Below the pieces are notes generated by a model. It did not search any database. It was not told where the DNA came from and saw only the letters and a program-made list of their open reading frames with translations. Positions 3,394 through 54,610 of a DNA stretch of 64,000 nt are shown piece by piece; positions within the stretch are counted from its first letter, which is position 1, and each line of letters starts with the position of its first letter. The position numbers and the translations under genes are program-made. The stretch lies in NCBI RefSeq assembly GCF_024700885.2, contig NZ_CP117016.1; one strand, 5' to 3'. The stretch comes from Escherichia coli. Lineage in GTDB: Bacteria > Pseudomonadota > Gammaproteobacteria > Enterobacterales > Enterobacteriaceae.

Positions 3394-3436
3394 GAATGGT
3401 TCAAAATTGCTACAATTTTGAACCATTCCAGTTTTC
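3394..3436 (+). terminator. rho-independent terminator after yqeG
   Basis: Perfect 16-bp inverted repeat GAATGGTTCAAAATTG / CAATTTTGAACCATTC with a 3-nt loop, followed by a T-rich tract. Confidence 0.6.
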
Positions 3437-3842
3437 ATAATGTTCATTTGTTATAATTCCGCTCTATCACTTCTCTCGTCATATCCTAGTATTATCAGTT
3501 AGTTAAACACACAAAGAGATCTGAACATCTTAAATAAGACTATTTAAGATGCATAACTTAGATTCGCAAGATATCTTCTGGTCATTCAAAAACAATTTGC
3601 GATATAGATATTCTCATACCATGAGATAGTTATCTGAACCACCATCAACCAGGTAAGATTAAATCAGTGAAACATAATCATATTTAATAACGAGAAATGC
3701 ATTTTTAAATGCTTTACTCAGAATTATAGCAAATACAGATTAATCGCAATTTTTCCCAGCAAAATTACAAAATCATGGTGTATTGACATCATCAATAACC
3801 AATGAAATTATGCAATTATATACGGATAGGGAGGTTCTTAAC

Positions 3843-4475
3843 ATGGGGCTTTGTAGTCGTTATAAAAGTCTTACATGCAATAGTTGCTCAATGCATTGCC
3901 AAATAATGCCAGAAGAGTCACCGCGTTTGCAGTATTGCGCAAACTCGTGTTTTTGTATGTGGCCCGAAGAAAGTTCATATTTTAATCGTGGTGTGGTGGA
4001 AGGTATCTTAACAAAAAACCACAATGCGAGATTAAGCGGATATATTTTTGTCGATTTTTCAGTAAGTTTTTTACGTCTATTCCTTGAAAAAGACTGGATT
4101 GACTATCTTGCAAGTACTGACATGGGGATTGTTTTAGTCAGCGACCGAAATATGCAATCGTTAGCTAACTACTGGCGAAAACACAACTCTGCAATATCTG
4201 CTGTCATATATAATGATGATGGTCTTGATGTTGCCAATGAAAAGATCAGACAACTATTTATTGGTCGTTATTTATCATTTACCAGAGGGAACACATTAAC
4301 TCAGATGGAATTCACCATAATGGGATATATGGTTTCTGGTTATAATCCATATCAGATTGCTGAAGTTCTGGATATGGATATCCGTAGCATCTACGCGTAC
4401 AAGCAACGAATCGAAAAGAGAATGGGTGGTAAAATAAACGAGTTATTTATTCGTTCACATTCGGTCCAACATTGA
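3843..4475 (+). CDS. yqeH: LuxR-family transcriptional regulator (ETT2-island remnant)
   Basis: ORF-track ORF 3783..4475 begins at TTG; the ATG at 3843 (MGLCSRYKSL...) gives 210 aa; C-terminal helix-turn-helix region of LuxR/GerE type (NTLTQMEFTIMGYMVSGYNPYQIAEVLDMDIRSIYAYKQRIEKRM); AT-rich codon usage. Confidence 0.8.
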   Translation: MGLCSRYKSLTCNSCSMHCQIMPEESPRLQYCANSCFCMWPEESSYFNRGVVEGILTKNHNARLSGYIFVDFSVSFLRLFLEKDWIDYLASTDMGIVLVSDRNMQSLANYWRKHNSAISAVIYNDDGLDVANEKIRQLFIGRYLSFTRGNTLTQMEFTIMGYMVSGYNPYQIAEVLDMDIRSIYAYKQRIEKRMGGKINELFIRSHSVQH

Positions 4476-4688: not shown

Positions 4689-4964
4689 GTGGCTTCTGTT
4701 TCTATCAGCTGTCCCTCCTGTTCAGCTACTGACGGGGTGGTGCGTAACGGCAAAAGCACCGCCGGACATCAGCGCTATCTCTGCTCTCACTGCCGTAAAA
4801 CATGGCAACTGCAGTTCACTTACACCGCTTCTCAACCCGGTACGCACCAGAAAATCATTGATATGGCCATGAATGGCGTTGGATGCCGGGCAACTGCCCG
4901 CATTATGGGCGTTGGCCTCAACACGATTTTACGTCACTTAAAAAACTCAGGCCGCAGTCGGTAA
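4689..4964 (+). CDS. insA: IS1 InsA (transposition repressor)
   Basis: 91-aa [40 protein letters not shown]... recognised as IS1 InsA; GTG start. Confidence 0.95.
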
Positions 4965-5386
4965 CCTCGCGCATACAGCCGGGCAGTGACGTCATCGTCT
5001 GCGCGGAAATGGACGAACAGTGGGGCTATGTCGGGGCTAAATCGCGCCAGCGCTGGCTGTTTTACGCGTATGACAGTCTCCGGAAGACGGTTGTTGCGCA
5101 CGTATTCGGTGAACGCACTATGGCGACGCTGGGGCGTCTTATGAGCCTGCTGTCACCCTTTGACGTGGTGATATGGATGACGGATGGCTGGCCGCTGTAT
5201 GAATCCCGCCTGAAGGGAAAGCTGCACGTAATCAGCAAGCGATATACGCAGCGAATTGAGCGGCATAACCTGAATCTGAGGCAGCACCTGGCACGGCTGG
5301 GACGGAAGTCGCTGTCGTTCTCAAAATCGGTGGAGCTGCATGACAAAGTCATCGGGCATTATCTGAACATAAAACACTATCAATAA
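4883..5386 (+). CDS. insB: IS1 InsB frame; the transposase InsAB' is made by a -1 frameshift at the TTAAAAAACTC motif near 4936-4946
   Basis: 167-aa ORF matching InsB; A6C slippery motif present in the insA/insB overlap. Confidence 0.9.
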
Positions 5387-5638: not shown

Positions 5639-5712
5639 TGGAGCGGGCGAAGGGAATCGAACCCTCGTATAGAGCTTGGGAAGCTCTCGTTCTACCATTG
5701 AACTACGCCCGC
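5639..5712 (-). tRNA. glyU: tRNA-Gly (anticodon CCC)
   Basis: Reverse complement reads GCGGGCGTAGTTCAATGGTAGAACGAGAGCTTCCCAAGCTCTATACGAGGGTTCGATTCCCTTCGCCCGCTCCA with encoded CCA. Confidence 0.95.
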
Positions 5713-10660: not shown

Positions 10661-12439
10661 TTATGTGTTTAACAACTCATATTTCTTAATCTTGCGATAG
10701 AGCGTAGCAATGCCGATGCCCAGTTCATCAGCAACTTGCTTCTTGCTGTTATGACGTGAAAGCGCCTCGCGGATCATTTGCTTTTCCATCTCCTCCAGCG
10801 CCGTGCCGCCCGCATCATCGAGTGCCAGGTGCGCCTCGTTGACCTCTGTTACATCACTTTGCTCCGTTGTGCCATTATTCAGCAGATTTGGCGGCAATAG
10901 CGTGCTGTCGATAACTTCACCTGAAGGAACCACGTTAACCAGATATTCCATCAAATTGCTTAACTCGCGCAGGTTTCCGGGCCAACGATGCTTACGCAAT
11001 ATTTCGACGACATCGGGAGCAATGCCCGGATAAACCGATCCCAGACGACGGGTATGCAGATGTAAAAAGTAATGCACCAGTAGTTCAATATCTTCCTGAC
11101 GTTCACGCAGCGGTGGCAGAGTTATCGGGATAACATTAAGTCGGTAGAAGAGATCTTCGCGGAATTTACCTTCGGCAATGAACTGGGCCAAATTCTGGTT
11201 AGTTGCAGAAATGATGCGAATGTCGACTTGTATTGGGCTACTGGCACCAATCGGCAGAATTTCACGCGCCTCAATAGCGCGCAGTAATTTAGCCTGCAAC
11301 ATTAATGGCATATCACCTATTTCATCGAGAAACAGCGTGCCCGTATTCGCCGCCTGAATCAACCCTGTTTTACCGTTGGCAGAAGCGCCAGTAAATGCGC
11401 CTTTAACATAACCGAACAGTTCGCTCTCCAGAAGCTGCTCCGGAATCGCGGCACAGTTGATAGCAATAAAGGGTTTATTCCGTCTTCCGCTCAACTTATG
11501 GATTGCACGGGCGACAACTTCTTTACCCGTGCCGCTTTCACCAACCACCATAACGCTGGATGGGCTGGGTGCAATACGGCTAATGAGTCGTTTTAATTGC
11601 CGCATAACACGGCACTCGCCAACCAATTGTTCAATATGCGGTTCATCAGGTGCATTTGCTACAGAAAAACTGGTATGCGATTGGTGAAACGCCATTAAAA
11701 ATAATTGTCGGCCCTGAATGTTATGCAATTGACCAATGATTAATTCACTTTTATCGTCCCACGAAACAATATGCTGCATATGTCCATGGGTAAAATTACT
11801 CTCAAATGTTAATGGTCTGAAACGGATAGGTTTCCCAATAATATTATTTTGTACAACACCAAGTGTTTTTAAGGCAGTCTGATTAACAAACTGAATCCGA
11901 TTATCGTCATCAACAACTAATACACCCTGATCCATATTATCGATCATGGTCGCGAATATTTTACTGATGTTATCTCCTGGTCCCTGATCCTCCAGAAGTT
12001 TCGAAACAAAAATGGTGGATATATGGCGAACGTAATCAGAAAATTCGCGTAAATTATCACTAATATGCTCTTGTTGCTCGTGGGTAACGGCAATCAAACT
12101 TATCACCCCAACACAACGATCCTGTAAAATGACAGGCGTACCCAGAAATGCTTTTTCGCGGCAATTTTCTTTACTATCGCAACCTTCGCAAAGGGGATCG
12201 AAGCGAGACTGTGTCACAACTTTTTCAGTTTTCGTTTCCAGGACGTGGCGGAGCAGGCGTGAGTTGCCGCTCAACTGGCGACCAAGAAACTTCCCATACG
12301 CGCCCGTTCCGGCGACGCGACACAAGTTTTCATCAACGATCTCAACCTCAAGCTGCAAAACGCTGGCAAGCATTCTGGCAAAACGCTGAATTGTCGGTTG
12401 AATTTGCATCAATACTGACTGCGTAGTAGCAAGCTCCAT
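10661..12439 (-). CDS. ygeV: sigma54-dependent transcriptional activator (bacterial enhancer-binding protein)
   Basis: 592-aa ORF with AAA+ Walker A GESGTGKE, the sigma54-contact motif GAFTGA, and a C-terminal helix-turn-helix. Confidence 0.9.
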   Translation of the reverse strand: MELATTQSVLMQIQPTIQRFARMLASVLQLEVEIVDENLCRVAGTGAYGKFLGRQLSGNSRLLRHVLETKTEKVVTQSRFDPLCEGCDSKENCREKAFLGTPVILQDRCVGVISLIAVTHEQQEHISDNLREFSDYVRHISTIFVSKLLEDQGPGDNISKIFATMIDNMDQGVLVVDDDNRIQFVNQTALKTLGVVQNNIIGKPIRFRPLTFESNFTHGHMQHIVSWDDKSELIIGQLHNIQGRQLFLMAFHQSHTSFSVANAPDEPHIEQLVGECRVMRQLKRLISRIAPSPSSVMVVGESGTGKEVVARAIHKLSGRRNKPFIAINCAAIPEQLLESELFGYVKGAFTGASANGKTGLIQAANTGTLFLDEIGDMPLMLQAKLLRAIEAREILPIGASSPIQVDIRIISATNQNLAQFIAEGKFREDLFYRLNVIPITLPPLRERQEDIELLVHYFLHLHTRRLGSVYPGIAPDVVEILRKHRWPGNLRELSNLMEYLVNVVPSGEVIDSTLLPPNLLNNGTTEQSDVTEVNEAHLALDDAGGTALEEMEKQMIREALSRHNSKKQVADELGIGIATLYRKIKKYELLNT

Positions 12440-14106: not shown

Positions 14107-14163
14107 CCCCTCGGGCCGATCAGCTGGTCGGCCCTCTATTTCCAGAGGCCAAAAGGATAGGAT

Positions 14164-15360: not shown

Positions 15361-15417
15361 TCACCCTATTGGAACTGCTCCCTGCAAAACGGGGAGTAAA
15401 AAATCTGGAGAAAAATA

Positions 15418-16629: not shown

Positions 16630-16646
16630 TTACTCTTCACTTATTC

Positions 16647-16671
16647 CCCTCCGGTTCGCCGGAGGGTTTTT
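16647..16671 (+). terminator. intrinsic terminator-like hairpin between ygeY and hyuA
   Basis: CCCTCCGG-TTCG-CCGGAGGG stem-loop followed by TTTTT, ending 11 nt before the hyuA start. Confidence 0.5.
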
Positions 16672-16681
16672 GGAGTTTGCT

Positions 16682-20713: not shown

Positions 20714-20760
20714 ACCAACCTCAATGGATATCCTTTCAGTAACCCGGAATACCCGGGCCG

Positions 20761-22436: not shown

Positions 22437-22452
22437 TGGCAAGAGTGGTGCG
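22437..22452 (+). promoter_or_regulatory. candidate sigma54 -24/-12 element TGGCAAGAGTGGTGCG upstream of ygfK
   Basis: GG-N10-GC spacing correct; about 80 bp upstream of the ygfK start. Confidence 0.3.
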
Positions 22453-22533: not shown

Positions 22534-25500
22534 ATGGGGGATATTATGCGTCCCATTCCGTTTGAGGAACTTTTGACGCGCATATTTGATGAATACCAAC
22601 AACAACGCTCAATCTTTGGTATTCCCGAGCAACAGTTTTACTCACCCGTAAAAGGTAAAACTGTTAGCGTCTTCGGTGAAACCTGTGCCACTCCCGTCGG
22701 CCCTGCCGCTGGCCCGCACACGCAGCTCGCGCAAAATATTGTCACTTCCTGGCTGACTGGCGGGCGCTTCATCGAACTAAAAACCGTCCAAATTCTTGAC
22801 CGTCTGGAGCTGGAAAAGCCCTGTATCGATGCCGAAGACGAGTGCTTTAACACCGAATGGTCTACCGAATTTACCCTGCTTAAAGCCTGGGATGAATACC
22901 TCAAAGCCTGGTTTGCCCTGCACCTTCTCGAAGCGATGTTCCAGCCTTCTGATTCCGGTAAATCGTTCATCTTTAATATGAGCGTCGGTTATAACCTCGA
23001 AGGTATTAAGCAACCGCCGATGCAACAGTTCATCGACAATATGATGGATGCATCTGACCATCCGAAATTCGCTCAATATCGCGATACGCTGAATAAATTA
23101 CTCCAGGATGACGCATTTTTAGCCCGCCACGGATTGCAGGAAAAACGCGAATGCCTGCAGGCCTTACCGGCACGCATCCCCACCAGCATGGTAGAAGGCG
23201 TTACCCTCTCCACCATGCACGGCTGTCCTCCGCATGAAATCGAAGCCATTTGCCGCTACATGCTGGAAGAAAAAGGGCTCAATACCTTTGTGAAACTCAA
23301 CCCGACCTTACTGGGGTACGCGCGTGTTCGTGAGATCCTCGATGTCTGCGGTTTCGGTTACATAGGCTTAAAAGAAGAGTCATTTGATCACGACCTCAAG
23401 CTGACGCAAGCGCTGGAAATGCTGGAACGCCTGATGGTACTGGCAAAAGAAAAATCACTCGGCTTTGGCGTAAAACTGACTAACACTCTCGGCACCATCA
23501 ACAATAAAGGCGCACTGCCTGGTGAAGAGATGTATATGTCAGGCCGTGCGCTGTTCCCGCTCTCCATCAATGTTGCAGCAGTTCTCTCTCGCGCCTTTGA
23601 CGGCAAACTGCCCATTTCTTATTCCGGTGGTGCCAGTCAGCTGACTATCCGCGATATTTTTGATACTGGTATTCGCCCTATTACTATGGCAACCGACCTG
23701 CTGAAACCTGGCGGCTATCTGCGCTTAAGTGCCTGCATGCGCGAGCTGGAAGGCTCCGACGCCTGGGGGCTTGACCATGTTGACGTCGAACGCCTGAACA
23801 AACTGGCAGCAGACGCGTTAACCATGGAATACACTCAGAAACACTGGAAGCCAGAAGAGCGTATTGAAGTGGCAGAAGACCTGCCGCTGACCGACTGCTA
23901 CGTTGCACCGTGCGTTACTGCTTGCGCCATTAAACAGGATATTCCGGAATACATCCGTCTGCTTGGCGAACACCGCTATGCCGACGCACTGGAACTCATC
24001 TACCAACGCAACGCCCTGCCCGCCATTACCGGTCATATTTGCGATCACCAGTGCCAATACAACTGTACCCGCCTGGATTACGACAGTGCGCTGAATATCC
24101 GCGAACTGAAAAAAGTCGCGCTGGAAAAAGGTTGGGATGAATATAAGCAACGCTGGCACAAACCAGCCGGTTCTGGTTCACGCCATCCGGTTGCCGTGAT
24201 TGGTGCAGGTCCGGCGGGTCTGGCAGCAGGTTACTTCCTTGCCAGAGCGGGCCATCCGGTTACGCTGTTTGAACGCGAAGCCAATGCGGGCGGCGTGGTG
24301 AAAAATATCATTCCTCAGTTCCGTATTCCTGCAGAGTTAATTCAGCACGATATCGATTTTGTTGCCGCTCACGGCGTGAAATTTGAGTATGGCTGCTCAC
24401 CCGATTTGACCGTTGAACAGTTAAAAAATCAGGGCTTCCACTATGTTCTGATTGCCACCGGCACTGATAAAAATAGCGGTGTGAAACTGGCGGGCGACAA
24501 CCAAAATGTCTGGAAATCACTCCCCTTCCTGCGTGAATACAACAAGGGCACAGCGCTCAAGCTGGGCAAACATGTGGTCGTTGTCGGGGCGGGTAACACG
24601 GCAATGGACTGCGCTCGTGCGGCGTTACGCGTTCCAGGCGTAGAAAAAGCAACGGTCGTTTACCGTCGTTCACTGCAAGAGATGCCAGCATGGCGCGAAG
24701 AGTATGAAGAAGCGTTGCACGACGGTGTGGAGTTCCGTTTCCTGAATAATCCGGAACGTTTCGATGCTGATGGCACCTTAACCTTGCGCGTTATGTCGCT
24801 TGGCGAACCTGATGAGAAAGGTCGTCGCCGTCCGGTTGAAACCAACGAAACAGTAACACTGCATGTAGACAGCCTGATCACCGCCATTGGTGAACAGCAG
24901 GATACTGAAGCCCTGAATGCGATGGGCGTGCCGCTGGACAAAAACGGCTGGCCAGACGTCGACCATAATGGCGAAACTCGTCTGACTGACGTCTTTATGA
25001 TCGGCGACGTACAGCGCGGACCATCCTCCATTGTCGCTGCTGTCGGAACCGCGCGTCGGGCGACCGATGCCATCCTTAGTCGGGAAAACATCCGTTCCCA
25101 CCAGAACGATAAATACTGGAACAACGTCAATCCGGCGGAAATCTATCAACGCAAAGGCGATATCTCTATCACCCTGGTGGATAGCGACGATCGTGACGCG
25201 TTTGTCGCCCAGGAAGCCGCACGCTGCCTTGAATGTAACTACGTTTGCAGCAAGTGTGTGGATGTCTGCCCGAACCGCGCCAACGTATCCATTGCGGTCC
25301 CTGGCTTCCAGATCCGTTTCCAGACGCTGCACCTCGACGCTTACTGTAACGAATGCGGCAACTGCGCTCAGTTCTGCCCGTGGAACGGTAAACCGTACAA
25401 AGACAAAATCACCGTCTTCAGCCTGTCGCAAGACTTTGATAACAGCAGCAACCCTGGCTTCCTTGTGGAAGATTGCCGGGTACGAGTACGTCTGAATAAC

Positions 25501-25632
25501 CAAAGCTGGGTGTTAAACATCGACAGCGAAGGTCAGTTCAACAACGAACCACCGGAGCTGAACGATATGTGCCGCATTATTAGCCATGTCCACCAGCATC
25601 ATCATTATCTGCTGGGCCGCGTGGAGGTGTAA
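22534..25632 (+). CDS. ygfK: large Fe-S / FAD-NAD(P) oxidoreductase (glutamate-synthase-beta-like domain), putative selenate reductase subunit
   Basis: 1032-aa ORF; Rossmann motif [21 protein letters not shown]; Cys clusters; AAGGAG Shine-Dalgarno. Confidence 0.85.
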   Translation: MGDIMRPIPFEELLTRIFDEYQQQRSIFGIPEQQFYSPVKGKTVSVFGETCATPVGPAAGPHTQLAQNIVTSWLTGGRFIELKTVQILDRLELEKPCIDAEDECFNTEWSTEFTLLKAWDEYLKAWFALHLLEAMFQPSDSGKSFIFNMSVGYNLEGIKQPPMQQFIDNMMDASDHPKFAQYRDTLNKLLQDDAFLARHGLQEKRECLQALPARIPTSMVEGVTLSTMHGCPPHEIEAICRYMLEEKGLNTFVKLNPTLLGYARVREILDVCGFGYIGLKEESFDHDLKLTQALEMLERLMVLAKEKSLGFGVKLTNTLGTINNKGALPGEEMYMSGRALFPLSINVAAVLSRAFDGKLPISYSGGASQLTIRDIFDTGIRPITMATDLLKPGGYLRLSACMRELEGSDAWGLDHVDVERLNKLAADALTMEYTQKHWKPEERIEVAEDLPLTDCYVAPCVTACAIKQDIPEYIRLLGEHRYADALELIYQRNALPAITGHICDHQCQYNCTRLDYDSALNIRELKKVALEKGWDEYKQRWHKPAGSGSRHPVAVIGAGPAGLAAGYFLARAGHPVTLFEREANAGGVVKNIIPQFRIPAELIQHDIDFVAAHGVKFEYGCSPDLTVEQLKNQGFHYVLIATGTDKNSGVKLAGDNQNVWKSLPFLREYNKGTALKLGKHVVVVGAGNTAMDCARAALRVPGVEKATVVYRRSLQEMPAWREEYEEALHDGVEFRFLNNPERFDADGTLTLRVMSLGEPDEKGRRRPVETNETVTLHVDSLITAIGEQQDTEALNAMGVPLDKNGWPDVDHNGETRLTDVFMIGDVQRGPSSIVAAVGTARRATDAILSRENIRSHQNDKYWNNVNPAEIYQRKGDISITLVDSDDRDAFVAQEAARCLECNYVCSKCVDVCPNRANVSIAVPGFQIRFQTLHLDAYCNECGNCAQFCPWNGKPYKDKITVFSLSQDFDNSSNPGFLVEDCRVRVRLNNQSWVLNIDSEGQFNNEPPELNDMCRIISHVHQHHHYLLGRVEV

Positions 25633-25634
25633 TC

Positions 25635-26963
25635 ATGTTGATTCTGAAGAATGTCACCGCAGTGCAGTTACACCCGGCGAAAGTGCAGGAAGGCGTTGAT
25701 ATCGCCATCGAAAATGATGTGATTGTCGCTATCGGCGATGCCCTGACGCAACGCTACCCCGATGCCAGCTACAAAGAGATGCATGGTCGGATTGTGATGC
25801 CAGGAATTGTCTGCTCGCACAACCATTTTTACTCGGGGCTGTCCCGCGGAATTATGGCAAACATCGCCCCCTGCCCGGATTTCATCTCAACGCTGAAAAA
25901 TCTCTGGTGGCGACTCGATCGCACCCTTGATGAAGAGTCGCTCTATTACAGCGGACTGATTTGTTCCCTGGAAGCGATTAAGGGCGGATGTACATCGGTT
26001 ATCGATCACCATGCCTCTCCGGCGTATATCGACGGGTCGCTCTCCACATTGCGCAACGCATTTTTAAAAGTTGGCCTGCGCGCGATGACCTGTTTTGAAA
26101 CTACTGACCGTAACAACGGTATCAAAGAGTTGCAGGAAGGTGTAGAAGAAAACATCCGCTTCGCCCGTCAGATTGATGAGGCGAAGAAAGCAGCAACCGA
26201 ACCGTATCTGGTGGAAGCACATATCGGCGCTCACGCGCCGTTTACCGTGCCGGATGCCGGTCTGGAGATGCTGCGTGAAGCCGTGAAAGCCACAGGTCGT
26301 GGTTTGCACATTCACGCTGCGGAAGACCTTTATGACGTTTCCTACAGTCACCACTGGTACGGCAAAGACCTGCTGGCACGACTGGCGCAATTCGATCTCA
26401 TCGACAGCAAAACGCTGGTCGCTCATGGGCTGTACTTGTCGAAAGATGACATCGCCCTACTCAATCAGCGCGATGCGTTCCTAGTGCATAACGCCCGTTC
26501 AAACATGAACAACCATGTCGGCTACAACCATCACCTTAGCGACATCCGCAATCTGGCGTTGGGAACTGACGGCATTGGTTCGGACATGTTTGAAGAGATG
26601 AAATTTGCCTTCTTTAAACATCGCGATGCGGGTGGTCCGCTGTGGCCTGACAGTTTTGCCAAAGCACTGGCTAACGGCAACGAACTGATGAGCCGCAACT
26701 TTGGCGCGAAATTTGGCCTTCTGGAAGCCGGTTACAAAGCCGATTTAACCATTTGCGATTACAACTCGCCGACACCGCTGCTGGCAGACAATATCGCCGG
26801 GCATATCGCTTTCGGTATGGGCTCAGGCAGCGTTCATAGCGTGATGGTCAATGGCGTGATGGTCTATGAAGACCGTCAGTTTAACTTCGATTGCGATTCC
26901 ATTTATGCGCAAGCCAGAAAAGCCGCTGCCAGTATGTGGCGTCGGATGGATGCGCTGGCATAA
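25635..26963 (+). CDS. ssnA: amidohydrolase-family protein (chlorohydrolase / aminohydrolase)
   Basis: 442-aa ORF with HxH metal-binding motif (SHNHF); directly follows ygfK. Confidence 0.85.
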   Translation: MLILKNVTAVQLHPAKVQEGVDIAIENDVIVAIGDALTQRYPDASYKEMHGRIVMPGIVCSHNHFYSGLSRGIMANIAPCPDFISTLKNLWWRLDRTLDEESLYYSGLICSLEAIKGGCTSVIDHHASPAYIDGSLSTLRNAFLKVGLRAMTCFETTDRNNGIKELQEGVEENIRFARQIDEAKKAATEPYLVEAHIGAHAPFTVPDAGLEMLREAVKATGRGLHIHAAEDLYDVSYSHHWYGKDLLARLAQFDLIDSKTLVAHGLYLSKDDIALLNQRDAFLVHNARSNMNNHVGYNHHLSDIRNLALGTDGIGSDMFEEMKFAFFKHRDAGGPLWPDSFAKALANGNELMSRNFGAKFGLLEAGYKADLTICDYNSPTPLLADNIAGHIAFGMGSGSVHSVMVNGVMVYEDRQFNFDCDSIYAQARKAAASMWRRMDALA

Positions 26964-27013
26964 ATGACAAATACCCTCTTCCCGTAGGGAAGAGGGTTAA
27001 ATAAGGAAAGAAG

Positions 27014-27793
27014 ATGATTGAACAATTTTTCAGGCCCGACTCTGTCGAACAGGCGCTGGAACTGAAGCGCCGCTACAAGGATGAAGCCGTCTGGTTCGCC
27101 GGGGGCAGCAAACTCAACGCTACACCAACCCGTACCGATAAAAAGATTGCCATTTCCTTACAGGATCTGGAACTGGACTGGGTTGACTGGGATAACGGTG
27201 CACTGCGGATTGGCGCAATGTCTCGCTTGCAGCCACTGCGTGATGCGCGATTTATTCCTGCAGCACTGCGTGAAGCCCTCGGCTTTGTCTACTCTCGCCA
27301 TGTTCGTAATCAGTCGACCATTGGTGGTGAAATCGCCGCCCGGCAGGAAGAGTCTGTGCTGCTTCCCGTCCTGCTGGCACTGGATGCTGAACTGGTTTTT
27401 GGCAATGGCGAAACACTGTCAATCGAAGAGTACCTGGCCTGCCCATGCGATCGCCTGCTAACCGAAATTATCATTAAAGATCCGTATCGCACCTGTGCGA
27501 CCCGCAAAATTAGCCGTTCTCAGGCAGGTTTAACCGTCGTGACGGCAGCCGTTGCAATGACAGACCACGACGGTATGCGAATTGCGCTGGATGGCGTCGC
27601 CAGTAAAGCCCTGCGTCTGCACGATGTTGAAAAACAAAATCTGGAAGGCAATGCACTTGAACAGGCTGTCGCCAACGCCATTTTCCCGCAGGAAGATTTG
27701 CGGGGCAGCGTGGCCTATAAACGCTATATCACGGGAGTTCTGGTAGCCGACCTTTATGCCGACTGCCAACAGGCTGGGGAGGAAGCCGTATGA
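27014..27793 (+). CDS. ygfM: FAD-binding molybdopterin-dehydrogenase subunit-like protein
   Basis: 259-aa ORF; ATGA overlap with xdhD. Confidence 0.8.
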   Translation: MIEQFFRPDSVEQALELKRRYKDEAVWFAGGSKLNATPTRTDKKIAISLQDLELDWVDWDNGALRIGAMSRLQPLRDARFIPAALREALGFVYSRHVRNQSTIGGEIAARQEESVLLPVLLALDAELVFGNGETLSIEEYLACPCDRLLTEIIIKDPYRTCATRKISRSQAGLTVVTAAVAMTDHDGMRIALDGVASKALRLHDVEKQNLEGNALEQAVANAIFPQEDLRGSVAYKRYITGVLVADLYADCQQAGEEAV

Positions 27794-30660
27794 TCATCCA
27801 CTTTACTTTAAATGGCGCGCCTCAGGAGCTAACCGTTAATCCAGGCGAAAACGTGCAAAAGCTGTTGTTTAACATGGGAATGCACTCTGTACGCAACAGC
27901 GATGATGGATTCGGGTTTGCCGGTTCTGACGCAATTATCTGTAACGGTAATATCGTTAACGCGTCCTTGCTTATCGCCGCACAGTTAGAGAAGGCAGATA
28001 TTCGTACCGCAGAGTCTCTGGGCAAATGGAACGAGTTAAGTCTGGTTCAACAGGCAATGGTTGATGTTGGCGTGGTGCAGTCTGGTTATAACGATCCAGC
28101 TGCGGCTCTGATTATCACCGATCTTCTCGATCGCATTGCCACACCGACCCGCGAAGAGATCGACGACGCGCTTTCTGGTTTGTTCAGCCGCGATGCAGGC
28201 TGGCAACAATACTATCAGGTCATTGAACTGGCGGTTGCACGTAAAAATAATCCGCAGGCCACCATTGATATCGCTCCAACTTTCCGCGATGACCTTGAAG
28301 TCATTGGTAAGCATTATCCTAAAACTGATGCCGCGAAAATGGTGCAGGCGAAACCCTGCTATGTTGAAGACCGCGTAACGGCTGACGCCTGCGTCATTAA
28401 AATGTTACGTAGCCCACACGCTCACGCACTGATTACTCATCTGGATATCAGCAAAGCTGAAGCCTTACCGGGCGTTGTTCACGTTATTACTCACCTGAAT
28501 TGCCCGGATATCTACTATACCCCGGGCGGTCAGAGCGCACCGGAACCGTCACCGCTTGACCGCCGTATGTTCGGCAAGAAAATGCGTCACGTCGGCGATC
28601 GCGTTGCTGCGGTCGTCGCTGAAAGTGAAGAAATTGCGCTCGAAGCACTGAAGCTCATCGACGTTGAATATGAAGTGCTTAAACCTGTAATGTCGATCGA
28701 CGAAGCAATGGCGGAAGATGCGCCTGTCGTGCACGATGAACCGGTGGTGTATGTTGCTGGTGCGCCAGATACTCTGGAAGACGATAACAGCCATGCAGCC
28801 CAGCGCGGCGAACATATGATCATCAACTTCCCGATCGGTTCTCGCCCCCGTAAAAATATCGCCGCCAGTATTCATGGTCATATTGGCGATATGGACAAAG
28901 GCTTTGCCGATGCCGATGTGATCATTGAGCGAACCTATAACTCAACGCAGGCACAGCAGTGCCCGACTGAAACACATATCTGCTTTACCCGTATGGACGG
29001 CGATCGTCTGGTGATCCACGCCTCCACCCAGGTACCATGGCACTTACGCCGCCAGGTCGCGCGCCTCGTGGGCATGAAACAGCATAAAGTTCATGTCATT
29101 AAAGAGCGAGTTGGCGGCGGTTTTGGTTCCAAACAAGACATCCTGCTGGAAGAAGTGTGCGCCTGGGCAACCTGCGTGACCGGACGTCCGGTACTGTTCC
29201 GCTACACCCGTGAAGAAGAGTTTATTGCTAACACCTCTCGCCACGTCGCGAAAGTCACCGTCAAACTGGGCGCGAAAAAAGATGGTCGCCTGACGGCAGT
29301 GAAGATGGATTTCCGCGCCAACACGGGCCCTTACGGCAACCACTCACTCACCGTACCGTGTAACGGACCGGCGCTGTCGCTGCCGTTATATCCGTGTGAT
29401 AACGTCGATTTCCAGGTCACCACCTACTACAGCAACATTTGCCCAAATGGTGCTTATCAGGGTTATGGCGCGCCGAAAGGTAACTTCGCTATCACCATGG
29501 CATTAGCGGAACTGGCTGAACAGTTACAGATCGACCAGCTGGAAATTATCGAACGTAACCGTGTACACGAAGGGCAAGAGCTGAAAATTCTCGGTGCAAT
29601 CGGTGAAGGTAAAGCGCCGACCTCCGTTCCTTCCGCCGCCAGCTGCGCACTGGAAGAGATCCTGCGTCAGGGTCGCGAGATGATCCACTGGTCGTCACCG
29701 AAACCGCAAAATGGTGACTGGCACATCGGTCGCGGCGTCGCCATTATCATGCAGAAATCGGGTATCCCAGATATCGATCAGGCTAACTGCATGATCAAAC
29801 TGGAATCGGACGGCACCTTTATCGTTCATTCTGGCGGTGCGGATATTGGTACTGGTTTGGATACTGTGGTGACGAAACTGGCAGCAGAAGTGCTGCACTG
29901 CCCACCGCAGGACGTGCATGTTATCTCCGGTGATACCGATCATGCGTTGTTTGATAAAGGCGCATATGCCTCGTCCGGTACTTGCTTCTCGGGTAACGCG
30001 GCGCGTTTGGCAGCAGAAAATCTGCGGGAGAAAATTCTGTTCCACGGTGCACAAATGTTGGGTGAGCCAGTGGCAGATGTCCAACTAGCAACGCCGGGCG
30101 TCGTGCGCGGCAAGAAAGGCGAAGTTAGTTTCGGGGATATTGCCCATAAAGGCGAAACCGGCACCGGCTTTGGTTCACTGGTGGGAACTGGCAGTTATAT
30201 CACGCCTGATTTCGCCTTCCCGTATGGCGCAAACTTCGCTGAAGTTGCCGTCAACGCGCGTACGGGTGAAATCCGCCTGGATAAATTCTACGCCTTGCTG
30301 GACTGCGGTACACCGGTCAACCCGGAATTAGCATTGGGACAAATCTACGGTGCTACCCTGCGAGCTATCGGCCACAGTATGAGCGAAGAGATCATTTATG
30401 ACGCCGAAGGTCACCCGTTAACGCGTGATTTACGCAGTTACGGTGCACCGAAAATTGGTGACATTCCGCGTGATTTCCGCGCAGTGCTGGTGCCGAGCGA
30501 CGATAAAGTCGGCCCGTTCGGGGCGAAATCGATCTCGGAAATCGGTGTAAATGGCGCAGCTCCGGCGATTGCTACCGCAATTCACGATGCCTGCGGCATC
30601 TGGTTACGCGAATGGCATTTCACACCGGAGAAAATACTCACCGCGCTGGAAAAAATATAA
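27790..30660 (+). CDS. xdhD: fused molybdopterin-binding / Fe-S hydroxylase (xanthine dehydrogenase family)
   Basis: 956-aa ORF with GGGFGSKQD molybdopterin motif. Confidence 0.85.
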   Translation: MIIHFTLNGAPQELTVNPGENVQKLLFNMGMHSVRNSDDGFGFAGSDAIICNGNIVNASLLIAAQLEKADIRTAESLGKWNELSLVQQAMVDVGVVQSGYNDPAAALIITDLLDRIATPTREEIDDALSGLFSRDAGWQQYYQVIELAVARKNNPQATIDIAPTFRDDLEVIGKHYPKTDAAKMVQAKPCYVEDRVTADACVIKMLRSPHAHALITHLDISKAEALPGVVHVITHLNCPDIYYTPGGQSAPEPSPLDRRMFGKKMRHVGDRVAAVVAESEEIALEALKLIDVEYEVLKPVMSIDEAMAEDAPVVHDEPVVYVAGAPDTLEDDNSHAAQRGEHMIINFPIGSRPRKNIAASIHGHIGDMDKGFADADVIIERTYNSTQAQQCPTETHICFTRMDGDRLVIHASTQVPWHLRRQVARLVGMKQHKVHVIKERVGGGFGSKQDILLEEVCAWATCVTGRPVLFRYTREEEFIANTSRHVAKVTVKLGAKKDGRLTAVKMDFRANTGPYGNHSLTVPCNGPALSLPLYPCDNVDFQVTTYYSNICPNGAYQGYGAPKGNFAITMALAELAEQLQIDQLEIIERNRVHEGQELKILGAIGEGKAPTSVPSAASCALEEILRQGREMIHWSSPKPQNGDWHIGRGVAIIMQKSGIPDIDQANCMIKLESDGTFIVHSGGADIGTGLDTVVTKLAAEVLHCPPQDVHVISGDTDHALFDKGAYASSGTCFSGNAARLAAENLREKILFHGAQMLGEPVADVQLATPGVVRGKKGEVSFGDIAHKGETGTGFGSLVGTGSYITPDFAFPYGANFAEVAVNARTGEIRLDKFYALLDCGTPVNPELALGQIYGATLRAIGHSMSEEIIYDAEGHPLTRDLRSYGAPKIGDIPRDFRAVLVPSDDKVGPFGAKSISEIGVNGAAPAIATAIHDACGIWLREWHFTPEKILTALEKI

Positions 30661-30669
30661 GTAATAAAT

Positions 30670-30698
30670 GGCCGCTTCGGCGGCCTGTTTCTCTGTTT
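30670..30698 (+). terminator. rho-independent terminator after xdhD
   Basis: GGCCGC-TTCG-GCGGCC hairpin followed by TGTTTCTCTGTTT. Confidence 0.6.
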
Positions 30699-48774: not shown

Positions 48775-48805
48775 GTCGCATCAGGCATTTATCGCCTGAT
48801 GCGAC
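48775..48805. repeat. REP (repetitive extragenic palindrome) element
   Basis: GTCGCATCAGGCATTTATCGCCTGATGCGAC palindrome between convergent ygfZ and yqfA. Confidence 0.7.
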
Positions 48806-51618: not shown

Positions 51619-54492
51619 TTACTGGTATTCGCTAATCGGTACGCAGGAGCAGAACAGGTTACGGTCGCCGTAAACATCATCCAGACGTTTCACTGTCGGC
51701 CAGTATTTGTCTGCCACGCCTGCCGGGAATACCGCAACTTCACGGCTGTACGGATGCGCCCACTCGGCGACCAGTTCGCTCTGAATGTGCGGCGCGTTCA
51801 CCAGCGGGTTATCTTCCAGCGGCCAGACACCGGCTTTCACCTGGTCAATTTCTGCGCGGATAGCCAGCATCGCGTCGATAAAGCGATCCAGTTCCACTTT
51901 GCTTTCGGATTCGGTCGGTTCAACCATCAGCGTACCCGCCACCGGGAATGACATGGTCGGCGCGTGGAAACCGTAGTCGATCAGACGCTTGGCAATATCC
52001 AGTTCGCTGATGCCGGTTTCTTCTTTCAGCGGACGAATATCAAGAATACATTCGTGCGCCACGCGACCGTCGCGACCGGTATACAGCACCGGGAAAGCAT
52101 CCTGCAGGCGGCTGGCAATATAGTTGGCGTTAAGAATTGCCACCTGGCTTGCTTTTTTCAGCCCTTCTGCGCCCATCATGCGGATGTACATCCAGCTGAT
52201 TGGCAGGATAGAGGCACTACCGAACGGTGCCGCAGAAACCGCGCCCTGACGGGTTAACATGCCTTCGATTTGCACCACGCTATGACCCGGTACAAACGGT
52301 GCCAAATGCGCTTTCACACCGATCGGTCCCATACCTGGGCCGCCGCCACCGTGCGGAATGCAGAAGGTTTTATGCAGGTTGAGATGCGAAACGTCCGCGC
52401 CAATAAAGCCCGGTGAGGTAATGCCAACCTGGGCGTTCATGTTCGCGCCATCAAGGTAAACCTGACCGCCGAACTGATGCACGACTTCACACACTTCACG
52501 GATCGTTTCTTCGTACACGCCGTGGGTGGAAGGATAAGTCACCATGATGCAGGAGAGATTATCGCCCGCCTGTTCCGCTTTCGCGCGCAGGTCAGTCAGA
52601 TCGATGTTGCCATTTTTATCACATGCCACAACCACCACCTGCATTCCTGCCATATGTGCAGAAGCAGGGTTAGTTCCGTGCGCAGAAGCCGGGATCAGGC
52701 AGATATCGCGATGCCCCTCGTTGCGGCTTTCATGATAATGACGAATCGCCAGCAGGCCCGCGTATTCGCCCTGTGCGCCAGAGTTCGGCTGCATACAAAC
52801 GGCGTCGTAACCAGTCAGTTTCACCAGCCAATCAGCCAGCTGCGCAATCATCTGCTGATAACCTTCTGCCTGTTCCGGCGGGCAGAACGGGTGCAGTTCG
52901 GCAAATTCCGGCCAGGTGATGGGGATCATCTCGGCGGCGGCGTTCAGTTTCATGGTGCAGGAACCCAGCGGGATCATCGCCTGATTCAGCGCCAGATCTT
53001 TACGCTCCAGCGAGTGCATATAGCGCATCATTTCGGTTTCGCTGTGGTAGCGATTAAACACCGGATGGGTGAGGATTTCGTCGTCGCGCAGCATCGCAGG
53101 CTGGATAGAGCGGCTGTCGTGAGCCACGTCTTTGTCCAGCGTGTCGATGTCCAGGCCGTGGTTATCCCCCAGCAGTACGCTGAAAAGCTGCATCACGTTT
53201 TCGCGCGTGGTGGTTTCATCAAGGGTGATCCCAACCGCGTTCAGGATATCGCTACGCAGGTTGATTTCAGCCGCTTCGGCACGCGCCAGTACGCCCGCCT
53301 TGTCGGCCACTTCCACACACAGAGTGTCGAAATAGTGCGCATGGCGCAGCTTCAGACCTTTTTGTTGCAGGCCTGCCGCCAGGATATCGGTCAGACGGTG
53401 AATGCGGTTAGCGATACGTTTCAGGCCAACCGGGCCGTGATAAACGGCATACAGGCTGGCGATGTTTGCCAGCAGCACCTGGGAAGTACAAATGTTGGAG
53501 TTCGCTTTCTCACGACGAATATGTTGCTCGCGAGTCTGCATCGCCATGCGCAGAGCGGTGTTGCCAGCTGCATCTTTCGATACACCGATAATACGGCCCG
53601 GCATTGAGCGTTTGTATTCGTCTTTCGCCGCAAAGAATGCCGCGTGTGGGCCACCGTAACCCATCGGTACGCCAAAGCGTTGCGCCGAACCAAAAACAAT
53701 ATCCGCGCCCTGTTTACCCGGCGCAGTTAACAGCACCAGCGCCATAATATCGGCGGCGACACTGACCACAATTTTGCGTGATTTCAGTTCGCTAATAAGC
53801 GCGGTGTAGTCGTGAATTTCACCAGTAGTGCCGACCTGCTGTAACAGCACGCCGAAGACGTCCTGGTGGTCGAGCACTTTTTGCGCATCATCGACAATCA
53901 CTTCAAAACCAAAGGTTTCAGCACGAGTACGGACCACATCCAGCGTTTGCGGATGCACATCGGAAGCCACGAAGAAGCGGTTGGCATTTTTCAGTTTGCT
54001 GACGCGTTTCGCCATCGCCATTGCTTCGGCGGCAGCGGTGGCTTCGTCAAGAAGAGAAGCCGATGCCATATCCAGACCGGTCAAATCCAGCGTTACCTGC
54101 TGGAAGTTGAGCAGTGCTTCAAGGCGGCCCTGGGAGACTTCAGGTTGATACGGAGTATACGCGGTATACCAGCCCGGATTTTCCAGCATGTTACGCAGAA
54201 TAACCGGCGGTAGCTGCACGGCGGTGTAACCCATGCCGATGTAAGACGTGAAGCGTTTATTGCGACTGGCAATAGCCTTGAGTTCCGCCAGCGCGGCGTA
54301 TTCGGTCGCCGGTGCGCCAACCTGCGGCGGGGTCGCAAGCTGAATATCTTTCGGCACAATCTGGCCGGTCAGCGCGTTTAACGATTGTGCGCCAACGGCA
54401 TTCAGCATTTCTTGCTGTTGCGCGGCGTCCGGTCCGATATGGCGTTCAATAAAAGCGCCGCTGTTTTCAAGCTGGCTTAACGTCTGTGTCAT
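51619..54492 (-). CDS. gcvP: glycine dehydrogenase (decarboxylating), glycine cleavage P protein
   Basis: 957 aa from [22 protein letters not shown]...; ORF-track extension to 54576 rejected. Confidence 0.95.
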
Positions 54493-54610
54493 GAGCGATG
54501 GTTCCTGAAACGTGCAGTGAATTGTGAACCTCTCTCCTTGCGAAGAGAGTGAGGGTGAGGCGTAAAAGTTCCTCACCCTGATCCTCTCCCGCAGAAGAGG
54601 AATAAAGCCG

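Follow-up and report, generated by a model that had tools for sequence, protein, structure and literature searches.

A conserved hairpin without a U-tract between ssnA and ygfM of Escherichia coli: a candidate for operon punctuation

What does a stable stem-loop do between ssnA and ygfM, in the middle of an operon, and is it a terminator, an element that tunes mRNA stability, or a relic? The question arises in a window of 64,000 nt of E. coli DNA, coordinate 1 of which corresponds to position 3072328 of NC_010498.1. The window is 100% identical to that annotated sequence of E. coli SMS-3-5, and the gene names ssnA and ygfM, which a first-pass annotation had assigned from the letters alone, are thereby confirmed. 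The unit lies on the + strand and consists of ygfK (22534..25632), its first gene, ssnA (25635..26963), encoding the aminohydrolase of the ring-opening step of reductive urate degradation, ygfM (27014..27793), encoding the FAD subunit of XdhD-YgfM, and xdhD (27790..30660), its last gene. The products of these genes carry out the opening three steps of the reductive route by which gut bacteria degrade uric acid, a pathway solved recently, in which XdhD-YgfM reduces urate to 2,8-dioxopurine, YgfK then reduces 2,8-dioxopurine, and SsnA opens the ring (PMC12507026). The gene pairs YgfK-SsnA and YgfM-XdhD represent two enzyme modules of the pathway. Just 2 nt separate ygfK from ssnA, and 4 nt are shared by ygfM and xdhD, so that the hairpin divides two tightly coupled gene pairs, ygfK/ssnA and ygfM/xdhD.

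The four genes have been treated as a single operon (PMC12623156), and ssnA, ygfM and the whole four-gene unit belong to the YgeV iModulon (PMC12133099). A sigma-54-like -24/-12 match, TGGCAAGAGTGGTGC (22437..22451, + strand), about 83 nt 5' of ygfK, is a candidate operon promoter by its consensus match only, and such matches are no more frequent in the window than expected by chance. At the other end, 10 nt past the xdhD stop codon, a GC hairpin GGCCGCTTCGGCGGCC followed by TGTTTCTCTG (30670..30685, + strand) forms a terminator-like end of the unit. No sigma-70-like promoter match was found in late ssnA and no sigma-54-like match inside ssnA, which fits co-transcription of ssnA and ygfM, and an internal ygfM promoter was rejected on the same scan of late ssnA. 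A "native promoter" of xdhD has been named in a Life Metab paper, the supplement of which leaves the fragment undefined.

Position and fold of the hairpin

The hairpin occupies 26973..26997 on the + strand and is composed of a pyrimidine-rich 5' arm ACCCTCTTCCC (26973..26983; columns 13-23 of the alignment described below), a loop GTA (26984..26986) and a purine-rich 3' arm GGGAAGAGGGT (26987..26997). Its perfect 11-bp stem, with G-C at 7 of the 11 pairs, and its 3-nt loop are exactly the ACCCTCTTCCC-GTA-GGGAAGAGGGT that the first-pass annotation had described. The ssnA stop codon TAA (26961..26963, + strand) is separated from the stem by an upstream linker of 9 nt, ATGACAAAT (26964..26972, + strand), and the stem thus begins at the tenth nucleotide, in agreement with the earlier wording of "10 nt after the ssnA stop". 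Downstream, a linker of 16 nt (26998..27013, + strand), A/U- and purine-rich, contains the ygfM Shine-Dalgarno sequence AAGGA (27003-27007, + strand), and the ygfM ATG follows at 27014, 16 nt past the stem.

The loop-closed structure had been called very stable from inspection, and the computed RNA fold energy of -19.4 kcal/mol bears this out (z = -4.7), none of 200 dinucleotide shuffles being equally stable. The hairpin still forms when folded in a 111-nt context, and its pair probabilities are 0.84-1.0 when 100-300 nt of flank are added on each side; directly past the stem, the downstream linker is predicted to be largely unpaired. Perfect stems of at least 11 bp with loops of 3-8 nt amount to four distinct hairpins in the window (six hits over the loop sizes), against an expectation of 0.128 per dinucleotide-shuffled window. 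The ssnA-ygfM hairpin is not a product of chance. Nevertheless, a stable hairpin is present in five of the eight co-directional spacers of 35-60 nt in this window, so the one studied here is typical of the region and not exceptional. Within the urate cluster, hairpins are also found at the ygeW->dpaL, dpaL->ygeY, ygeY->hyuA and yqeC->yqeB junctions, the one at ygeY->hyuA being terminator-like, with U5, inside an operon.

Several identities were tried and rejected. Among Rfam families the best overlap is mir-320, which scores 16.9 bits against a threshold of 55.5 and appears only at a permissive E-value (E = 1.8), as expected by chance. A SECIS element, considered for the selenium-linked cluster, was rejected because the ssnA stop codon is UAA in E. 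coli, and it is UAA or UAG in most orthologues; moreover, the frame past the stop meets TAG within 8 codons. A terminator on the minus strand is flagged by the terminator scan, with the tail ATTTGTCATT, but no gene or promoter-like site feeds that strand, and the A-rich upstream linker is not conserved in orthologues; as the main function it was rejected.

Pairing retained through sequence turnover

An 80-nt query centred on the hairpin hits the ssnA-ygfM junction at exactly one place in each of 5177 complete E. coli genomes, out of a total of 5426. The hairpin is kept in all nine alleles sampled, with energies from -17.7 to -20.2 kcal/mol. The SMS-3-5-type allele, to which the window belongs, has the form ACCC...GGGT with loop GTA or GCA, while the majority, K-12-type allele is GCCCTCTTCCC-GCA-GGGAAGAGGGT with a basal G-U pair. 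In the O157-type allele, a 1-nt deletion leaves 10 bp and a 4-nt loop (-17.7 kcal/mol), and in the B2/CFT073-type allele, carried by about 1200 genomes, 13 of 80 nt differ and the hairpin reads TCCCCTCTTCTT-TCA-GAGAAGAGGGGA (-20.2 kcal/mol). To judge from these alleles, the E. coli ssnA-ygfM spacer is a local hot spot of divergence, yet its hairpin stays fully paired.

A MAFFT alignment of all Enterobacteriaceae shifts the arms between groups, and the formal pair count was therefore confined to nine distinct ungapped Escherichia-type sequences, including E. whittamii, strain E69 and Citrobacter sp. MGH106. In this set 99% of the cells are paired, and both sides have changed in 3 of the 11 pairs (A-U to C-G, C-G to U-A). 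Covariation is scored at 0.245, which none of 500 shuffles reaches (0.129 in shuffles), and sliding the 3' partner by 1-3 columns lowers the pairing to 52-74%. Template-switch mutation in quasi-palindromes can alter both arms simultaneously without selection on the RNA, and the "compensatory" changes of the hairpin could stem from such events.

Beyond the genus, the evidence from fold strength, geometry and tail composition is alignment-free. A scan for SsnA with one genome per GTDB species gave 80 loci, with ygfM directly 3' of ssnA in about 46 of them, across a spacer of 45-59 nt in most loci and of 80-96 nt in most Aeromonas. A single hairpin of -15 to -26 kcal/mol dominates almost every one of these spacers, and the stem sequences are unrelated between groups. 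A strong hairpin is found in Citrobacter (stem CCCTCTCCT), Atlantibacter (stem CGCCTCCCG, shared with one C. freundii), Trabulsiella and Yokenella (both CCTCCCCGC), Edwardsiella (GCGCCTCGGCC, CCGCGCGGGC), Serratia (GCCGCCCCG, GCCGCTCGG), Morganella (GACCTGCGGC) and Pluralibacter; the Aeromonas stem is GCCCGCC. In most Enterobacterales, merely 0-5% of same-length flanking coding windows fold as well as the spacer, and z against shuffles ranges from -2.5 to -5.6 in most of these cases. RNAalifold, run on 18 Enterobacteriaceae spacers aligned by sequence only, still recovered the hairpin, and 7 of its 9 pairs show compensatory changes. The geometry is kept as well: the stem starts 2-9 nt past the ssnA stop in most Enterobacterales orthologues, and its end, just 5' of the Shine-Dalgarno sequence, is 13-18 nt away from the ygfM ATG (in Morganella, 22-24 nt). 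Absence from orthologous loci had been named beforehand as an outcome that would overturn the first-pass reading; the hairpin is present in most of them, with compensatory changes.

The hairpin is not indispensable, since it has been lost or degraded in some lineages that keep the ssnA-ygfM order, the stem being degraded in Klebsiella indica, the hairpin weak or missing in three Buttiauxella species, and no hairpin being found in Arsenophonus. The Aeromonas hairpin does not surpass the coding windows in stability because the genome is GC-rich. Fold energies also show no preference for the + strand (22 vs 16 in favour of + over -, p = 0.48), and the acting strand is thus not proven by G-U pairs.

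These losses and the missing strand asymmetry are what speaks for a non-functional relic, an old ssnA terminator that shed its U-tract once transcription ran on into ygfM-xdhD and is kept by inertia or by template switching that perfects the palindrome; a canonical terminator at the equivalent place past terminal ssnA in related genera (see below) fits the same idea. Against this stand at least ten complete turnovers of the stem sequence over four families, with stability, position and length remaining similar, whereas neutral decay would break an 11-bp stem at such distances, and the E. coli spacer, with its 13 differences in 80 nt, is still fully paired. We consider the relic rather unlikely.

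The lack of strand asymmetry, together with the perfect 11-bp inverted repeat, could equally suggest that the DNA palindrome itself matters, either as an operator bound by a dimeric transcription factor or by forming a cruciform. However, the half-site sequence varies between genera, to the point that stems are unrelated while the pairing is kept, on which ground a conserved operator was rejected; no promoter-like site is found near the palindrome, which is placed between two genes that are transcribed together, and a 3-nt spacer with 11-bp arms is short for cruciform extrusion. A function at the DNA level is therefore very improbable.

Tail composition and the fate of the flanking genes

The 8 nt 3' of the stem, TAAATAAG, contain two T, and tails in E. 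coli have 2-3 U in 8 nt. The + strand of the hairpin was not flagged by the terminator scan either, and the earlier remark that no T-tract follows is thus upheld. For 30 distinct internal ssnA->ygfM spacers, the 8 nt past the hairpin contain a median of 1 T, in contrast to 6 T in 8 past the first strong hairpin at 21 loci where ygfM does not come next (Mann-Whitney p = 1e-5, for taxa that are not phylogenetically independent). The latter loci include Klebsiella, Raoultella, Kluyvera, Enterobacter, Pluralibacter and Vibrio, and the neighbouring gene is convergent in nearly all 21 of them. By its sequence, the hairpin past terminal ssnA looks like a canonical intrinsic terminator. Hence, where genes follow ssnA, the hairpin has been retained and the U-tract has not. 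In Photobacterium, a 730-aa ORF comes 14 nt past ssnA, and no hairpin is found. Two U-rich exceptions occur among the ssnA->ygfM spacers, namely UUUU past the stem in Edwardsiella and U8 in Enterobacteriaceae bacterium B14 (L049).

It could be argued that the hairpin is nonetheless a leaky intrinsic terminator or attenuator, past which some polymerases stop, so that ygfM-xdhD is transcribed less than ygfK-ssnA. Stem and loop are of terminator grade, the tail in E. coli, UUAAAUAA, is all A/U and would form a weak RNA-DNA hybrid, and both the U-rich exceptions above and the U5 hairpin inside an operon at the neighbouring ygeY->hyuA junction lend this idea some credit. On the contrary, the E. coli tail holds only 2-3 U and that of orthologues a median of 1, several orthologue tails are G/C-rich (e.g., CGAAGAGG in Trabulsiella and AGCAAGAG in Aeromonas), and the U-rich tails of terminal ssnA argue by contrast that a U-tract is selected against here. 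The start of the stem, 2-9 nt past the stop codon, is also a place at which a ribosome ending translation would be expected to hinder its folding just when termination should occur. Attenuation is thus unlikely, though a weak role of this kind retains some probability. As for a canonical intrinsic terminator, the locus has the stem-loop (stem of 5-14 bp, loop of 3-8 nt) but not the U-tract nor, to judge from indirect evidence, a place at the end of the transcription unit, and that identity is not supported. Taken together, the comparison of spacers shows what appears to be a selected structure without a U-tract and not a canonical terminator.

The ygfK-ssnA-ygfM-xdhD operon is anaerobic and urate-induced. 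The E. coli Term-seq tables of Adams 2021, obtained under aerobic conditions in which the operon is barely expressed, list no 3' end for ssnA/ygfM, and the ssnA-ygfM junction is absent from the differential-decay tables of Dar and Sorek (2018), where the operon is nearly silent. Reported expression changes are indirect and give a mixed picture. In UPEC, the log2 fold changes are -5.79 for ygfK, -5.32 for ssnA and -3.90 for xdhD, which, as fold changes and not abundances or half-lives, hint at a step-down across the ssnA-ygfM junction; the smaller change of xdhD would fit an attenuator equally well. In Aeromonas hydrophila, ssnA and ygfM change by 5.42 and 5.10 (log2), likewise fold changes and not abundances or half-lives, and given this near-equal induction any step-down there must be small, a point that also tells against attenuation. 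Membership in the YgeV iModulon and co-induction in A. hydrophila establish that ssnA and ygfM are co-regulated.

The same expression data bear on a shield of the papBA/ompA kind, in which RNase E would cut the upstream linker and the hairpin would guard ygfM-xdhD from 5'-end-dependent decay. Stem-loops of this kind have been described in operons of E. coli (PMC5927463). The E. coli upstream linker, AUGACAAAU, is rich in A/U and predicted to be unpaired for the most part, and the end of the hairpin is conserved 13-18 nt before the ATG, just 5' of the Shine-Dalgarno sequence. However, the UPEC data suggest that the downstream genes respond less, not more, and the linker corresponds approximately to the stretch that a ribosome terminating at the ssnA stop would cover. 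The reading is further disfavoured because the linkers of orthologues are only 2-7 nt long and often C-rich (CCCACG, CCCUGU, ACCCG), which would make poor RNase E targets, and altogether we regard it as improbable.

The proximity of the stem to the stop codon allows yet another function, that of a translation modulator. Here a ribosome that completes ssnA would open the stem and bare a purine-rich standby site, coupling the translation of ygfM to that of ssnA. Indeed, the hairpin starts within ribosome reach of the ssnA stop, and in Enterobacteriaceae the 5' arm is anti-Shine-Dalgarno-like (CCUCC-like) and the 3' arm Shine-Dalgarno-like (GGAGG-like), a composition that fits in Escherichia, Citrobacter, Atlantibacter, Trabulsiella and Yokenella (e.g., ACCTCCCCG...CGGGGAGGT). 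This pyrimidine/purine asymmetry is nevertheless limited to one lineage, the stems of Morganella, Serratia, Edwardsiella and Aeromonas being generic GC stems, and the ygfM Shine-Dalgarno sequence lies outside the stem and is consequently not sequestered by the hairpin itself. Such coupling appears highly doubtful.

A putative exonuclease barrier and its relatives

Most likely, by analogy with described cases, the hairpin is ordinary "operon punctuation" that tunes mRNA stability. More specifically, we tentatively favour, with confidence a little short of even, a U-tract-less block to 3'-to-5' exonucleases inside the operon, of the class represented by malE-malF and by the boundaries of Dar and Sorek (2018). 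The first-pass annotation had proposed an mRNA-stabilising or processing element in place of a terminator; its negative half agrees with the median of 1 U in 8 nt, and the stabilising or processing role is the most likely one by analogy only. Of 34 E. coli operon boundaries at which the upstream gene is stabilised, 26 have a stable U-tract-less hairpin at their end; these boundary hairpins do not depend on Rho and are also conserved in Salmonella and Enterobacter, malE-malF being the prototype (PMC5927463). At the level of sequence the ssnA-ygfM hairpin has both features of the class, as it is a stable U-tract-less hairpin at a cistron boundary and its structure is conserved in orthologous operons.

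As an exonuclease block, the hairpin would act in cis as an RNA structure of the polycistronic ygfK-ssnA-ygfM-xdhD mRNA, marking the border between the translationally coupled pairs ygfK/ssnA and ygfM/xdhD. RNA polymerase would mostly pass it because there is no U-tract. Somewhere downstream, an endonuclease would then cut or a Rho-type 3' end would form, the linker at 26998..27013 being a candidate entry site for the endonuclease, and the 3'-to-5' exonucleases PNPase and RNase II would trim back from there and halt at the stem. What remains would be a stabilised ygfK-ssnA segment ending just beyond the ssnA stop, while the ygfM-xdhD segment would decay faster. In this manner one promoter could give unequal levels of mRNA, and hence of enzyme, for YgfK and SsnA on the one hand and for the XdhD-YgfM module on the other.

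Such a block would possibly cap the costly Mo/Fe-S enzyme XdhD-YgfM relative to YgfK/SsnA, and the hairpin may thus be relevant for anyone re-engineering or modelling the operon. The four genes have in fact been overexpressed in a probiotic E. coli intended for gout, with the promoter inserted far upstream, in the ygeV-ygeW spacer. A more ambitious proposal treats the hairpin as one of several conserved punctuation marks, together with those at the ygeW/ygeX, ygeX/ygeY and ygeY/hyuA junctions, that split the urate cluster into enzyme modules, and at the same time as a switch operated by the ribosome. If this were true, termination of ssnA translation would open the stem and license the translation or stability of ygfM-xdhD in Enterobacteriaceae, and the stoichiometry of the modules would be set post-transcriptionally and not by the YgeV/sigma-54 promoter alone. 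We regard this combined scheme as quite improbable.

Within the accessible text of the literature that names both ssnA and ygfM, no description of the hairpin was found, and to that extent the hairpin is previously undescribed, whereas its structural class is already well known; it opens no new question. Its interest lies rather in being a clean example of a structure retained through complete sequence turnover, and in the natural contrast between a hairpin position with a U-tract where ssnA ends the operon and without one where ygfM follows.

Comparison with known systems delimits the exonuclease-block assignment further. Like malE-malF and the structures of Dar and Sorek (2018), the ssnA-ygfM hairpin is stable, lacks a U-tract and sits at a cistron boundary within one transcription unit, and it also shares with the latter the conservation of structure across enterobacterial genera directly past the upstream ORF. 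However, malE-malF is built of REP repeats whereas the present hairpin is unique in the genome, and the structures of Dar and Sorek lie mostly inside the downstream ORF and not, as here, in an intergenic position. Intrinsic terminators, including those past terminal ssnA in Klebsiella, Raoultella, Kluyvera and Enterobacter, resemble it in their GC-containing stem of 9-12 bp, short loop and closeness to the stop codon, and differ in that the ssnA-ygfM hairpin has no U-tract and is located inside an operon with co-regulated downstream genes; it probably shares an evolutionary origin with the terminators past terminal ssnA. The 5' stem-loops of papBA/ompA are also intercistronic and lie just 5' of the ribosome-binding site of the downstream gene, but the ssnA-ygfM upstream linker appears too short and variable for a conserved RNase E site, and the limited expression data point to the upstream, not the downstream, segment as the stronger responder. 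In synthetic tunable intergenic regions (TIGRs), hairpins between cistrons set the relative stability of mRNA segments and so balance the expression of an operon. Unlike TIGRs, the ssnA-ygfM hairpin is natural, single and without a defined RNase E site.

REP/BIME elements are likewise intergenic palindromes in operons that could block exonucleases. The ssnA-ygfM hairpin, found at a single place per genome across the 5177 E. coli genomes, is by this count not a REP-type repeat; a search of the window allowing 3 mismatches gave no second copy, and the hairpin does not resemble the REP consensus. The window does hold a REP-like palindrome elsewhere, at 48775-48805.

Divergence of the ssnA-ygfM spacer within E. 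coli

The spacer between ssnA and ygfM, in which the 11-bp hairpin (26973-26997, plus strand) is located, is a divergence hot spot among E. coli genomes. B2-type strains differ from window positions 26946-27025 at 13 of 80 nt (83.8% identity), and their identity over 401 nt around the spacer is about 95%. The B2-type allele is similar to that of 'Citrobacter sp. MGH106', and this resemblance suggests, from sequence comparison, that the divergence may have arisen either by recombination or from an old polymorphism. The junction is wholly missing in 249 of the 5426 complete E. coli genomes, and one genome carries its copy on a plasmid record. In one strain (ST69, H20) the match begins only at query position 116, indicating that the ssnA end is disrupted.

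The junction in other genera

In Edwardsiella (orthologous ssnA loci L038-L042, positions ~4330-4385), the junction hairpin has AAAA on one side and UUUU on the other, resembling a bidirectional terminator. The hairpin of Enterobacteriaceae bacterium B14 (L049, ~4330-4415) lies within an 86-nt spacer and is followed by U8, and ygfM starts there with GTG. Real termination may occur at the ssnA-ygfM junction in these two lineages. In Photobacterium (L075-L083, ~4330-4345), just 14 nt separate ssnA from an ORF of 730-743 aa, presumably an enzyme of the XdhD type with no separate YgfM, and no hairpin is present between ssnA and this downstream ORF; a conserved stem, GAAGGGCGGTT...ACCGCTCTTC, is found about 100 nt inside the ORF.

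Candidate promoter and an RNA 3′ end in the ygfK-xdhD unit

A sigma-54-like -24/-12 match (TGGCAAGAGTGGTGC, 22437-22451) is located 83 nt upstream of ygfK, and the gene for the sigma-54 activator YgeV is encoded on the minus strand at 10661-12439. This match fits control by YgeV. Across the window, sigma-54-like matches are no more frequent than expected by chance. As for transcript ends, one ORF-internal RNA 3′ end is listed within xdhD, at MG1655 coordinate 3022649 (Adams et al., 2021, Term-seq tables).

Hairpins and other elements elsewhere in the window

Hairpins are also present at further co-directional junctions of the urate cluster, namely ygeW-dpaL (14107-14163; GGGCCGATCAGCTGGTCGGCCC, then TCTATTTCC), dpaL-ygeY (15361-15417; CTGCTCCCTGCAAAACGGGGAGTA, with an A-rich tail), ygeY-hyuA (16630-16681; CCCCTCCGGTTCGCCGGAGGG, then TTTTTGG) and, on the minus strand, yqeC-yqeB (20714-20760; GGCCCGGGTATTCCGGGTT). 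Among the co-directional urate-cluster junctions checked, hyuA-arcC has no hairpin. The ygeY-hyuA hairpin looks like a true intrinsic terminator in an intra-operon position.

The longest perfect hairpin of the window is an AT-rich 16-bp palindrome, GAATGGTTCAAAATTG-CTA-CAATTTTGAACCATTC (3394-3428), situated 10 nt past the yqeG stop (3383), and a second palindrome, CATCTTAAATA-AGAC-TATTTAAGATG, is found nearby at 3526-3551. The spacer of the convergent pair ygfZ and trhA contains a REP-like palindrome, GTCGCATCAGGC-ATTTATC-GCCTGATGCGAC (48775-48805), and the 118-nt gcvH-gcvP spacer (54492-54609, minus strand) folds into large nested hairpins of -43 kcal/mol that are pyrimidine/purine-rich (CCTCTTCTGCGGGAGAGG...CCTCACCCTCAC). 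Between yqeH and actS, an IS1A copy (4689-5386) is adjoined by a tRNA-Gly gene (5639-5712).
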